A stretch of 33,115 nt of DNA, taken from NCBI RefSeq assembly GCF_003334385.1, contig NZ_QOWN01000049.1; one strand, 5' to 3'. The position numbers were made by a program, and so were the translations under genes. Shown piece by piece: positions 8,266-11,118 of this stretch; positions within the stretch are counted from its first letter, which is position 1; each line of letters starts with the position of its first letter. The DNA comes from Escherichia coli. Its GTDB lineage: Bacteria > Pseudomonadota > Gammaproteobacteria > Enterobacterales > Enterobacteriaceae. Under the pieces are notes generated by a model. The model saw only the letters and a program-made list of their open reading frames with translations, did not search any database and was not told where the DNA came from.

Positions 8266-8496
8266 ATGAGAACAGCCGAATCACCCGGCAGAGAAATAAC
8301 CGCCAGACCAGCTAACCATCATGCGCATATCAGCATGGCCGCAAGAAAAGCCGAGCGTGCACATATCTGCGAATTACTGCGCGAGCTGACTGAGACAGCG
8401 AAAGAGACACACACCTGTCCACAGGAAACCTGCGCAGCCATTGAACGACTGATTGCAATACTCGCCAACCCAGACGAACTGAAGGGGTGCGCATAA
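8266..8496 (+). CDS. Hypothetical early protein (76 aa)
   Basis: ATG 8266 with caggag RBS; stop overlaps the exonuclease start (TAATG). Confidence 0.5.
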   Translation: MRTAESPGREITARPANHHAHISMAARKAERAHICELLRELTETAKETHTCPQETCAAIERLIAILANPDELKGCA

Positions 8497-9077
8497 TGAA
8501 CCATCTCATGATTGACACCGAAACACTGGGTAACGGACCGGACGCAGCCATATTCGCGATTGGGGCGGTGTTTTTCGACCCGTTCACCGGAAAGCTGGGC
8601 AAGCAGTTTGAGAAATTCATCGACCCGGTGGATTCAGAACGCAACGGCGGAACCGTCAATGCAGCCACCGCTGTATGGTGGGCCGGACAATCCGTGGAGG
8701 CCAGATCCTGCCTGCGCAACGCAGATGGAACAGAGCTGGCAGCAGTGACCGAATTTCTGGCGTTCATTTCACGCAATATGCATGACGAAAGCCCGGGCAA
8801 TTCACTGAACATATGGTGTAAGGGCGCATCCTTCGATTTCCCGATCCTGAAATCCGCCATAACACGCACAGCCGGAGAAAAAAGCATCCCCTGGTGCTAC
8901 TGGAACGAGCGCTGTATGCGCCCGCTTATCGCCATGGCTGAATCAACTGGATGGAAAATGCCAGGCAGATCAGGAAAAGAGGCCATTGCTCACACCGCGC
9001 TGGGCGACGCCATTTACCAGGCAAAGGTCGTGTCAGAAATCTGGCAGCGCTTCACAACACCATTCCTGAACATATGA
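8496..9077 (+). CDS. DEDDh-type 3'-5' exonuclease (DnaQ-like fold)
   Basis: Motifs MIDTETLG (Exo I), internal acidic residues and HTALGDA (Exo III with His) in a 193-aa protein; coupled to the upstream gene. Confidence 0.8.
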   Translation: MNHLMIDTETLGNGPDAAIFAIGAVFFDPFTGKLGKQFEKFIDPVDSERNGGTVNAATAVWWAGQSVEARSCLRNADGTELAAVTEFLAFISRNMHDESPGNSLNIWCKGASFDFPILKSAITRTAGEKSIPWCYWNERCMRPLIAMAESTGWKMPGRSGKEAIAHTALGDAIYQAKVVSEIWQRFTTPFLNI

Positions 9078-9086
9078 GGTGAAGCC

Positions 9087-9314
9087 ATGGTCGCCATCCT
9101 GAATGTGTGTTGCTGCCCCCCCCTGAACGTGGAAAGAAAAGCCCGCGCATCGCTGCGTTTATTCCGCGACGGCGTGCGGAATTTTTCACGCATAAAACCC
9201 CACGACTACCTGGTAATAAGAATCGGTTTCCGCTGGCGATTACTGAGCAAAAACAACGGGGCGTCATGGGATTTATTAACGCACGAAACCTATAACAAAG
9301 AGGCCGCGTTATGA
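9087..9314 (+). CDS. Hypothetical protein (75 aa, Cys-rich N-terminus)
   Basis: ATG 9087 after gaggtga; stop overlaps the dam start (ATGA), consistent with coupling; no domain recognised. Confidence 0.4.
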   Translation: MVAILNVCCCPPLNVERKARASLRLFRDGVRNFSRIKPHDYLVIRIGFRWRLLSKNNGASWDLLTHETYNKEAAL

Positions 9315-10291
9315 GCAAAGAACTGTTATCCGGTACGCCACTGAAATGGGTGGGCGGAAAAAGCCGCATCATGAACACACTGAAGGCGCACCTGCCAGAA
9401 GCCGACTGTCTGGTTGAGCCGTTCGTGGGCGGCGCATCGGTATTCATGAACACCAGTTACAAGCGTTACATCCTGGGTGATTCCAATGGTGCGCTGATTA
9501 ATTTCTACCGGCAAGCTAGGGACAACACCGACAGCCTGATCGACGAGGCGAAAACCCTGTTCCTGAACCACAACAACAGGGGTGACTATCTCATCATTCG
9601 CGAAACCTTTAACGCAGAGAATCATGCCTTCCTGAACAGCAGAACGGGAATAAGCGACCGCCGTGAACTGCGACTGGCCGCCATGTTTTTGTACCTGAAC
9701 CGACACAGCTTTAACGGTTTGTTCCGCGTGAACGGAAAAGGCGATTTTAACGTGCCTTTCGGCTGCTACCGCAAGCCCTACTTCCCTGAGCGTGAAATCC
9801 GCGCATTTGCAGACAAGGCAAACAGCACCCGAACGCTGCTTATCCACGCAGATTTTAAGGATACGCTGAACTCTGCCAGTCACCTGTTCGGCATGGGCAA
9901 CACGCTTTGCGTGTACTGCGATCCCCCTTACCTGCAATTCAGTGGCCGGGACAATTTTACCGCCTACGGAAAACCATTCGATGAAGACGAGCACGTTCGT
10001 CTGAGGGCAGCGCTTGACCGCCTTTCACAGGAAACGGGCGGCATGACCAGCATCACCATCTCCAATTCCGACACACCGGAAACCAGACGCATTTATCAGG
10101 GTTACCGGATGAACACCATCCTGGCACCACGAAGCGTTGGCGCAAGAACCCGGGAATCAGCACCGGAGGTTATCGCCACCCTGAGACAGTGCGACGCCTG
10201 CGGTCGCCATGGCGGTGGCTACTGCCCGGACTGCGGACCTGTAACGGAAGATGCAACTTACAGCGCGATGTTAATCACCGCCAGTACGTAA
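9311..10291 (+). CDS. dam: DNA adenine (N6) methyltransferase, Dam family, with C-terminal Cys4 extension
   Basis: N-terminal PLKWVGGK, FVGGASVF and catalytic DPPY motif typical of Dam-family MTases; C-terminal CDACGRHGGGYCPDCGP is zinc-ribbon-like. Confidence 0.88.
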   Translation: MSKELLSGTPLKWVGGKSRIMNTLKAHLPEADCLVEPFVGGASVFMNTSYKRYILGDSNGALINFYRQARDNTDSLIDEAKTLFLNHNNRGDYLIIRETFNAENHAFLNSRTGISDRRELRLAAMFLYLNRHSFNGLFRVNGKGDFNVPFGCYRKPYFPEREIRAFADKANSTRTLLIHADFKDTLNSASHLFGMGNTLCVYCDPPYLQFSGRDNFTAYGKPFDEDEHVRLRAALDRLSQETGGMTSITISNSDTPETRRIYQGYRMNTILAPRSVGARTRESAPEVIATLRQCDACGRHGGGYCPDCGPVTEDATYSAMLITAST

Positions 10292-10325
10292 ACAACCAGT
10301 AAATCAGTAACACCGGAGTCAGGAA

Positions 10326-10562
10326 ATGAATAGCGAAAACAACAAAGAGCTTTTGCGGGAATTGCGTCTCATCGCCCGTGCACACGAGGAAGCAGCAAAA
10401 GTTATCGCTGCTGCTGGAAGACCAGAGCTCGTTATCGCTTCAGCAATCTCACTGAGGATCACCATGGAAGCAATCCGGGTGATTCAGGATCAGGAAAGTG
10501 AAATCGCCACCCTTAAAAAGCAGCTCAACGAGAAATCTGCCGGGCAAAGGAGTCAGCAATGA
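10326..10562 (+). CDS. Hypothetical protein (78 aa)
   Basis: ATG 10326 with ggag RBS; coupled to the next ORF (ATGA). Confidence 0.55.
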   Translation: MNSENNKELLRELRLIARAHEEAAKVIAAAGRPELVIASAISLRITMEAIRVIQDQESEIATLKKQLNEKSAGQRSQQ

Positions 10563-10777
10563 TCCAGGAATCAACCGTTATCCGGTTCACAGCCAACGGC
10601 CGTCAGTACGAGGTAGACGAAGCCCTGATTGATTACAGCATGACCCGCCAGAGCTCACGCTTTCAGGACATGTACCACATCCGGCTAATCAACGGTTCGT
10701 CTTTCAACGCCACAAACGTGGAAGAAGTACGCGTGCTGACAGCAACACGCAACACGGGAGGTAAAGCATGGCAGTGA
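10559..10777 (+). CDS. Hypothetical protein (72 aa)
   Basis: ATGA overlap with the upstream gene; overlaps the downstream start. Confidence 0.55.
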   Translation: MIQESTVIRFTANGRQYEVDEALIDYSMTRQSSRFQDMYHIRLINGSSFNATNVEEVRVLTATRNTGGKAWQ

Positions 10778-11118
10778 TTTATATCGCCGGCCCCATGACC
10801 GGATACGAAGACTGCAATAGAACGGCGTTTTGCCTGGAGGATCTGAAGCTTCGGTGCGCCGGAAACATCGTTCTTAATCCTGCCGTACTGCCTGACGGAT
10901 TAAGCCAGCAGCAGTACATGAGTATTTGTATTCCGATGCTCATGTGTGCCGATGCCATTTACTTACTGGATGGATGGGAAGAATCCGCTGGCGCACGGGC
11001 TGAGTACGCAATGGCGCTCAAACTGAACATGCCAGTGTCATTCCCGGAAAACCGGGCAGCCGTCGAAACCGTCGCGCAGCTGCTTCACAAATCAAAAGCC
11101 ACACAGGCGACTGAGTAA
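10768..11118 (+). CDS. DUF4406-like protein (nucleoside 2-deoxyribosyltransferase-like fold)
   Basis: N-terminal MAVIYIAGPMTG motif typical of DUF4406 phage proteins as recalled; gggagg RBS. Confidence 0.6.
   Translation: MAVIYIAGPMTGYEDCNRTAFCLEDLKLRCAGNIVLNPAVLPDGLSQQQYMSICIPMLMCADAIYLLDGWEESAGARAEYAMALKLNMPVSFPENRAAVETVAQLLHKSKATQATE

Follow-up and report, generated by a model that had tools for sequence, protein, structure and literature searches.

Do a DEDDh 3'-5' exonuclease, a Dam DNA methylase and a DUF4406 protein that are encoded near one another in the early region of a P2-like prophage form a functional module, or are they accessory genes that arrived separately? The question is raised by a 33,115-nucleotide stretch of the Escherichia coli contig NZ_QOWN01000049.1 (hereafter, the window), in which the exonuclease (8496-9077), Dam (9311-10291) and DUF4406 (10768-11118) genes all lie on the plus strand, as an original prediction made from the sequence alone had placed them; profile searches confirm the three assignments, as do the catalytic residues of the exonuclease and Dam. 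That prediction had also suggested that the trio could be a linked counter-defence or nucleotide-handling module rather than a part of core replication. We consider it likely that the three are separately inherited, ordinary accessory genes of the prophage and that the enzymes most likely act independently. The block is an ordinary one and largely already known: its genes are annotated, and a member of the exonuclease family, EcD, has been characterized experimentally. The domains, the catalytic residues, the fold, how the genes are distributed and the correspondence with EcD are established here directly, and every in vivo role proposed below for the window prophage is one that we infer.

Distribution of the three genes among P2-like loci

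The distribution of the genes was surveyed in P2-like loci anchored either on the replication initiator gene A (80 loci, 71 with sufficient upstream DNA) or on the exonuclease (51 evaluable loci, with exonuclease identities of 43 to 99%). Anchoring on the exonuclease also recovered 29 non-P2 loci, of which 28 were evaluable lambdoid loci. Among the A-anchored loci, Dam is located just upstream of A in 31 of 71, with a median gap of 4 nucleotides (nt), and 29 of the 71 contain Dam without the exonuclease and DUF4406. The exonuclease was present in 2 of 71 and DUF4406 in 1 of 71, in close relatives only. When the exonuclease served as the anchor, Dam followed within 1 kb in 49 of 51 P2-like loci; DUF4406 was found in 11 of the 51 and the 75-amino-acid (aa) open reading frame (ORF) of the block in 18. 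The exonuclease is present without Dam in two loci (L129 and L131). None of the 28 lambdoid exonuclease loci has an adjacent Dam gene, and a methyltransferase-motif ORF adjoins the exonuclease in at most one of them.

Individual relatives bear out the part of the original prediction that placed these genes outside core replication. One P2-like locus whose A protein is 71% identical (L004) lacks all three enzyme genes, and DUF4406 and the 75-aa ORF are missing from another (L006; A 95% identical), which does carry the exonuclease and Dam. In a third (L094:5045-5410), an in-frame deletion joins Dam residues 1 to 46 to DUF4406 residues 46 to 116, and both Dam and DUF4406 are therefore inactivated. 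The chimera has been deposited as a 117-aa "DUF4406 domain-containing protein" that carries both Pfam domains (P0040). We rejected this combination of PF02086 and PF14359 as a true domain fusion, as it is the product of the in-frame deletion. A search of 64 exonuclease homologues, 120 DUF4406 homologues and 10 long forms of DUF4406 turned up no genuine fusion between any of the families.

A Klebsiella prophage has the order exonuclease-Dam-A, and a Serratia liquefaciens prophage, with an exonuclease 44% identical to that of the window, has the order exonuclease-Dam-67-aa ORF-DUF4406 (a 267-aa form)-A. The full trio was found only in close E. coli relatives and in this one Serratia lineage. The distribution is thus nested and mosaic: Dam is a common early gene, the exonuclease and Dam form a stable pair in a sublineage, and DUF4406 is an occasional add-on. 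Neither co-occurrence nor fusion supports a dedicated exonuclease-Dam-DUF4406 system. The proposed functional link among the trio is not borne out by this distribution, in which Dam often stands alone, the exonuclease is restricted to a sublineage and DUF4406 accompanies a minority of exonuclease genes. Synteny across P2-like phages, the comparison by which the link was to be checked, shows the genes unlinked in relatives with the exception of the exonuclease-Dam pair.

Absence from relatives also bears on a role close to core replication, in which the exonuclease would trim or proofread 3' ends, Dam would provide methyl-directed strand marking and DUF4406 would adjust the pool of deoxynucleoside monophosphates (dNMPs) for rolling-circle replication or recombination. 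The early-region position upstream of A agrees with such helpers; T4 DexA has roles in replication as well as in host-DNA scavenging, and DUF4406 genes lie among helicase, clamp, RusA and SSB genes in other phages. However, all three genes are missing from both close and distant P2-like phages that keep A, and the reported activity of EcD on unmodified DNA is weak (PMC12153337). We regard replication helpers as a very improbable reading.

The exonuclease gene and EcD

The exonuclease gene encodes 193 aa (phrog_255) and matches the Rv2179c-like family PF16473 over residues 2 to 183 (E value of 2.6e-51). Its best Protein Data Bank (PDB) matches, at E values of about 1e-12, are 8KEL and 8KEN, the structures of T4 DexA and its S87A/D90A mutant (Kang et al., NAR 2025, PMC12153337). 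Residues D7, E9, D114, H166 and D171 align with D7, E9, D119, H186 and D191 of DexA, leaving the DEDDh set of Exo I (D-x-E), Exo II (D) and Exo III (H-x4-D) intact, and W136 corresponds to DexA W152, whereas A82 stands in place of DexA D90, so that the tetramer-forming Asp is lost. The MAFFT alignment puts S150 opposite DexA D169, with E149 adjacent, in a gapped region, so that either residue could be its counterpart; the equivalent of D169, which functions in recognition of 5-hydroxymethylcytosine (5hmC), is stated to be conserved in EcD (PMC12153337). Overall, identity between the window exonuclease and T4 DexA is about 24%, and the extra loops of DexA are absent from the window protein.

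EcD (GenBank HAK9828821.1) was introduced as an "uncharacterized E. coli exonuclease" that is inactive on unmodified double-stranded DNA and digests the 5hmC-containing T4 genome. When plasmid borne, it protects E. coli from T4, leaky expression being enough, and the strategy was named HREX, for hmC-recognizing exonuclease (PMC12153337). The gene-specific part of the EcD forward primer, ATGATTGACACCGAAAC, matches the window exactly at 8508-8524, which corresponds to codon M5. Once one 1-nt indel is allowed, the reverse primer falls on the stop codon region at 9058-9077; its exact string had no match in any examined locus. Both primers map only to the window and its closest E. coli relatives. 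In addition, the diagnostic EcD residue A78, found at the position of DexA D90, corresponds to A82 when the protein is numbered over 193 aa (82 - 4 = 78), and 189-aa forms that start with MIDTETLG and carry A78, third-party annotation (TPA) records among them, share its 90% cluster. From the primer mapping at both ends, the correspondence of A78 to A82 and the 189-aa cluster forms, we conclude that the exonuclease gene is the EcD/HREX gene, with EcD corresponding to codons 5 to 193.

This identification changes how the exonuclease would be expected to function. The original prediction had raised counter-defence, and for the exonuclease that suggestion runs counter to the degradation of 5hmC-containing T4 DNA by EcD and the protection of E. 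coli from T4 (PMC12153337). The published function would instead point to defence or interphage competition. EcD was treated as a bacterial defence gene, and a prophage or operon is never mentioned (PMC12153337); the placement in a P2-like early region is therefore a new context and not a new gene. EcD/HREX and the window protein belong to a common family, the window protein keeps the DEDDh residues and the W152 equivalent, and the gene here is the second ORF of a prophage early-region accessory block and is followed by Dam. Separately, in a subgroup of exonuclease homologues with 33 to 36% identity (P0166, P0169, P0171 and P0172), the His and the Exo II Asp have been lost along with the catalytic Glu; these proteins are apparently inactive paralogues retained in prophage-sized contigs.

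P2-type phages carry anti-T-even functions such as tin, which counts in favor of reading the exonuclease and Dam as a two-gene unit. The exonuclease would attack foreign or hypermodified DNA and Dam would mark or protect the phage's own replicating DNA, with expression during growth of the P2-like phage or from leaky early transcription. Such a unit would account for the position of Dam directly after the exonuclease in 49 of 51 P2-like loci over 43 to 99% identity, including Klebsiella and Serratia, and it fits the modification dependence of EcD and its protective effect even at leaky expression (PMC12153337). Yet Dam is common in P2-like phages without the exonuclease (29 of 71), the lambdoid phages carry the exonuclease family with no adjacent Dam (28 loci), L129 and L131 have the exonuclease without Dam, and plasmid-borne EcD was effective by itself in a host that has its own Dam (PMC12153337). 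The adjacency may simply be inherited gene order, and we consider a two-gene unit unlikely.

The Dam methylase and the DUF4406 protein

Dam (326 aa) is an orphan Dam-family N6-adenine DNA methyltransferase of the D12 class. It matches PF02086 with an E value of 9e-52 and TIGR00571 with 224.3 bits (cut-off of 114.85), while its score of 217 against the equivalog model for E. coli Dam falls under the cut-off of 441; it is therefore a member of the family and not the host orthologue. Alignment to E. coli Dam (EcoDam; 2G1P alignment) gave an E value of 5e-52, and both EPFVGGAS (FxGxG, S-adenosylmethionine [SAM]-binding) and CDPPY (the catalytic DPPY) are present. Eight EcoDam residues (K9, Y119, N120, L122, R124, P134, R137 and Y138) are GATC contacts, and six of them (K9, N120, L122, R124, P134 and Y138) are identical in the window Dam; Y119 is conservatively replaced by F and R137 by C. 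To judge from these residues, the specificity of the window Dam is probably GATC. The best PADLOC model is the orphan methyltransferase (oMTase), and no neighboring gene matched a restriction or defence model in PADLOC, which gave no more than a generic DEDDh hit for the exonuclease.

The window Dam differs from EcoDam in having a C-terminal tail of roughly 35 aa, which includes a CxxC...CxxC zinc ribbon (aa 292-318; window 10184-10264). The tail also matches the RecE/ExoVIII model NF007259 (positions 526-552) and the exonuclease PHROG phrog_20376, and it is present in only 2 of the 31 Dam genes of the A-anchored set. The Dam genes of P2-like prophages include that of phi-b0847 in CFT073, and a Dam gene in such a prophage has been noted before (PMC3573123). 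The position upstream of A is shared with the other P2-like Dam genes (31 of 71), but here about 2.3 kb of inserted genes lie between the two.

The prophage (window 4301-33115) is depleted in GATC: a Markov model of trinucleotide frequencies predicts 128.8 sites and 81 were observed, compared to 27 observed and 29.9 expected in the host flank. Under-methylated GATC has classically been regarded as costly for enterobacterial phages. The depletion fits with that idea, with GATC status mattering to the phage, and with a phage Dam under which replicating DNA would stay fully methylated. Three GATC sites lie within 23 nt at 15272-15294, just past the A stop codon. Phage Dam, host Dam and the Rac exonuclease RecE can trigger retron defence (Bobonis et al., preprint), and Dam-like genes can therefore also be liabilities.

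The 116-aa DUF4406 protein (phrog_355) matches PF14359 over residues 3 to 91 (E value of 9.3e-32). An AlphaFold2 model built from 46 homologues reached a pLDDT of 85.4, and its top 20 Foldseek matches in the PDB were nucleoside 2-deoxyribosyltransferases (NDTs), DNPH1, MilB and the structural genomics entry 1T1J, the best matches having a probability of 1.0 and TM scores of about 0.6 to 0.7. The model and these matches confirm the NDT/DNPH1/MilB fold, as the original prediction had proposed. Human DNPH1 is a 5-hydroxymethyl-dUMP (hmdUMP) N-glycosidase, and MilB is an N-glycosidase of CMP and 5-hydroxymethyl-CMP (hmCMP). With the NDTs, the protein shares the Rossmann-like fold, but it is shorter. 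Residues Y5, I6, P9, M10, N17, R18, W70, S73, G75 and E79 are invariant; they include positions in an N-terminal IYIAGPMTG loop, the N17-R18 pair and a W70-x2-S73-x-G75-x3-E79 motif with an invariant Glu. An hhalign comparison with a DNPH1 sequence aligned nothing beyond the N-terminal Gly-rich loop, and we therefore do not claim that E79 is equivalent to the catalytic Glu of NDT and DNPH1.

Sequence searches of the PDB with DUF4406, both single sequence and profile, returned nothing significant, and no functional study emerged from literature searches on DUF4406, on Rv2179c with phage, and on NDT with methyltransferase and anti-defence. It is a reasonable inference from the modelled fold that DUF4406 is a putative nucleotide N-glycosidase, and nucleotide handling is plausible given the fold and the dUTPase and MazG neighbors of DUF4406 in other phages. 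The family comprises 18,930 clusters at 50% identity (E ≤ 1e-3), and the window protein is 59% identical to gp57 of phage N15. DUF4406 also forms the N terminus of longer proteins, such as the 267-aa Serratia form (L083:7720-8523) and a 334-aa protein of Acidovorax phage Alfacinha3 (L257:2001-3005), whose C-terminal extensions match nothing.

Outside the window lineage, DUF4406 repeatedly lies beside DNA methyltransferases, in roughly one quarter of the phage lineages. A methyltransferase-motif ORF occurs within 700 nt on the same strand in 23 of 79 DUF4406-anchored IMG/VR loci, compared to 1 of 28 lambdoid exonuclease loci that served as a control, and 9 of 10 motif ORFs tested (seven adjoining DUF4406 and three further upstream) are DNA methyltransferases. 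The associated enzymes belong to several families, namely, Dam (phrog_56), phrog_111, phrog_359 and multidomain C5+N6 enzymes (phrog_116). In phage N15, the reading frame of gp57 (DUF4406) overlaps that of gp58, a C5 cytosine methyltransferase; Aeromonas phage vB_AsaM-56 has the order Dam-ORF-DUF4406, DUF4406 of Shewanella phage 1/41 is directly followed by a methyltransferase, and in Alfacinha3 (Peduoviridae) a C5 methyltransferase overlaps the DUF4406 protein. Genes 56 to 58 of N15 (L250:2292-3803) are a three-gene unit between annotated rho-independent terminators. A group of enterobacterial prophages typified by L169 carries interchangeable methyltransferase cassettes within about 210 nt upstream of DUF4406 in 19 of 28 loci, encoding 180-aa NPPY, 219-aa DPPW or 417- to 925-aa C5+N6 multidomain enzymes (for example, L169:3870-5783, L178:5124-5783, L182:5459-5998 and L200:3000-5777).

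These placements suggest that DUF4406 could be tied to DNA methyltransferases in general instead of to the exonuclease; it could, for instance, clear S-adenosylhomocysteine or methylated nucleotides. The raw excess over the control, the variety of methyltransferase families and the cases in N15, vB_AsaM-56, Shewanella 1/41, Alfacinha3, Serratia and the window all speak for such a tie. After clustering at 85% identity, however, adjacency remained in 4 of 9 clusters and was absent from two large ones (32 and 11 loci), and no adjacent methyltransferase was found in 14 of 18 sampled GenBank lineages or in 6 of 6 metagenomic contexts. Where the methyltransferase is not adjacent, DUF4406 has dUTPase, MazG, helicases, RusA and SSB as neighbors, that is, generic early or nin region genes, and none of the 10 long forms is a fusion with a methyltransferase. 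A general association, strong in the raw counts, thus shrank to a lineage-specific one once clustering and diverse phage sampling were applied, and we did not retain it. We treat the placement as a lead that stops short of proving a link, and we think a general tie to methyltransferases quite unlikely.

The fold of DUF4406 would also allow one modified-nucleotide pathway through all three enzymes, a reading near to the original prediction, with the exonuclease releasing dNMPs, including 5-hydroxymethyl-dCMP, from competitor or host DNA, DUF4406 hydrolyzing the modified dNMP and Dam protecting the phage DNA. That MilB (hmCMP) and DNPH1 (hmdUMP) share the DUF4406 fold agrees with this pathway, as do the digestion of 5hmC DNA by EcD (PMC12153337), the recurrence of the trio in a divergent Serratia prophage and the co-oriented, translationally coupled arrangement of the genes. 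Nonetheless, DUF4406 is missing from 40 of the 51 exonuclease-bearing P2-like loci, no Rv2179c-type exonuclease was found near DUF4406 in 18 sampled GenBank phages and 6 metagenomic contexts, and no domain fusions were found. We give this pathway only a slim chance. A bolder version would be a modification-centered module for warfare between phages, in which the exonuclease would shred the 5hmC DNA of T-even phages, DUF4406 would destroy the released nucleotides and Dam would keep the GATC sites of the phage itself marked; in a wider form of the idea, DUF4406 would be an N-glycosidase of modified nucleotides or S-adenosylhomocysteine that partners phage methyltransferases. We hold this version to be improbable.

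Probable separate inheritance, gene layout and prophage setting

The reading that we favor, in which the three enzymes are separately inherited accessory functions, would explain the locus as follows. Seven co-directional, translationally coupled accessory genes form a run in the rightward (early) region. The exonuclease would act as a T4-DexA-type DEDDh enzyme, hydrolyzing DNA from 3' ends in the 3'-to-5' direction by a two-metal mechanism. Like published EcD, it would be inactive on unmodified double-stranded DNA and active on 5hmC-modified T-even DNA, and it would therefore harm competitor phages with hypermodified DNA while sparing the genome of its own phage. The orphan Dam would methylate the GATC sites of phage DNA whenever host Dam is in short supply, and the methylation may shield the DNA from MutH and from GATC-specific restriction. 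DUF4406 would probably cleave the N-glycosidic bond of a (deoxy)nucleoside monophosphate. Acquisition would have been nested, with Dam next to A as the common state, the exonuclease joined to Dam in a sublineage, and DUF4406 and small ORFs added later and easily lost.

Several observations weigh against this reading. Dam still adjoins the exonuclease in Klebsiella and Serratia, where exonuclease identity falls to about 43%, and such persistence could reflect selection for the pair and not just inherited order. The order exonuclease-Dam-small ORF-DUF4406-A recurs in S. liquefaciens with an exonuclease only 44% identical, and the translational coupling implies co-expression. The identity with EcD relies on primers and residue numbering, with the reverse primer off by a 1-nt indel. 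Finally, the early operon should be repressed in lysogens, judging from P2 biology, and a lysogen-protecting role of the exonuclease is therefore uncertain.

The block has counterparts in the P2 loci old, tin and fun(Z), which are likewise nonessential, prophage-borne genes able to exclude other phages; P2 accessory loci have been described (PMC3573123). Those genes occupy moron positions (A-Q and G-FI) and have their own promoters, whereas the window block lies inside the rightward early region and has no recognizable promoter of its own. The block opens with a conserved 76-aa ORF (8266-8496, plus strand; phrog_22206) that is kept in relatives and whose stop codon overlaps the exonuclease start (TAATG). 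The exonuclease gene is followed by the conserved 75-aa ORF (9087-9314, plus strand; phrog_1525), whose stop codon overlaps the Dam start (ATGA). Dam and DUF4406 are separated by two plus-strand ORFs with no assigned function, one of 78 aa (10326-10562; phrog_23826) and one of 72 aa (10559-10777; phrog_3459) that overlaps both of its neighbors. The three enzyme genes therefore do sit together in a co-oriented run, as originally predicted, but they are not contiguous, since these three small ORFs intervene. Stop and start codons overlap at four junctions of the 8266-11118 run, and a terminator scan found no terminator-like site on its plus strand; from both we read the seven genes as one co-transcribed run. 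The 75-aa ORF is labelled "ParE family toxin-like protein" by PGAP/RefSeq, and no NCBIfam model matched it; we did not adopt a toxin reading, as the label is without NCBIfam backing. Copies with 55 to 64% identity occur in distant P2-like phages without the exonuclease.

A convergent gene for a 154-aa predicted membrane protein (11092-11556, minus strand; phrog_6315) overlaps the 3' end of DUF4406 by 27 nt; it closes the block and interrupts an otherwise continuous rightward operon toward A. Beyond it on the plus strand are an isrK-like, Hfq-binding small RNA (sRNA; 11686-11760) and a C4 antisense RNA of the P1/P7 immI type (11796-11883), with Rfam scores of 64.1 and 82.1 bits, respectively, both above gathering, and each with a terminator-like hairpin at its end. 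A 73-aa "derepression" ORF (11940-12161, plus strand), named after the annotation of P88-type phages, and a 138-aa ORF also lie in the gap before A, which encodes an 837-aa P2 A-type replication initiator (nickase) at 12643-15156 (plus strand; phrog_91, E value of 2e-235; PF05840 in homologues). The block thus lies ahead of the replication initiator, as predicted, only in a loose sense, with A starting 1.5 kb downstream past the convergent gene and the two sRNAs. Together with the 73-aa ORF, the isrK-like sRNA and C4 RNA make up a P1-immI-like RNA/antirepressor module, which a P2-like prophage here carries in its early region, ahead of orf138 and A. The annotation also has another ORF on the minus strand (11691-11879) that runs across the sRNA genes; it may be spurious.

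The element itself is an E. coli P2-like (Peduoviridae) prophage integrated beside dmsABC. Bases 53 to 8000 are 100% identical to E. coli strain G1/2 and hold dmsABC followed by the integrase, and, of 5,426 complete E. coli genomes, 25 have prophages that match bases 8000 to 12700 with 96 to 98% identity. E. coli G1/2 (NZ_CP060083) and EC2 (NZ_CP058571) are examples of lysogens with this prophage. The RefSeq names in the matching prophages are "3'-5' exonuclease," "DNA adenine methylase" and "DUF4406 domain-containing protein," and the exact sequences of all three enzyme proteins are already public. The prophage integrase (4336-5343) and a helix-turn-helix (HTH) repressor (5398-5880) are on the minus strand, a divergent regulator is on the plus strand (5843-6367), and the portal gene is located after A. 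A match to the sRNA STnc130 (124.8 bits; window 4127-4261, plus strand) lies between dmsA and the integrase, at or adjoining the probable attachment site. On the 3' side of A, a gene for a 135-aa protein (15704-16111, plus strand; phrog_142, Ren-like exclusion protein, MarR-like) occupies the classical P2 "moron position 1"; an SSB gene (16144-16461) and, on the minus strand, a gene with no assigned function (16511-17155) come next.

Given the distribution data, annotating the three genes as one system, or counting them as such, is not warranted. What was described as a "bacterial" HREX/EcD nuclease is an early gene of a P2-like prophage, nearly always with a phage Dam gene after it. This recasts HREX/EcD as part of phage-versus-phage competition and raises the question of when it is expressed. 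For DUF4406, the fold and the patchy, repeated placement beside diverse methyltransferases point to concrete substrates to test, and its association in the window lineage with an exonuclease of 5hmC DNA also suggests specific ones.

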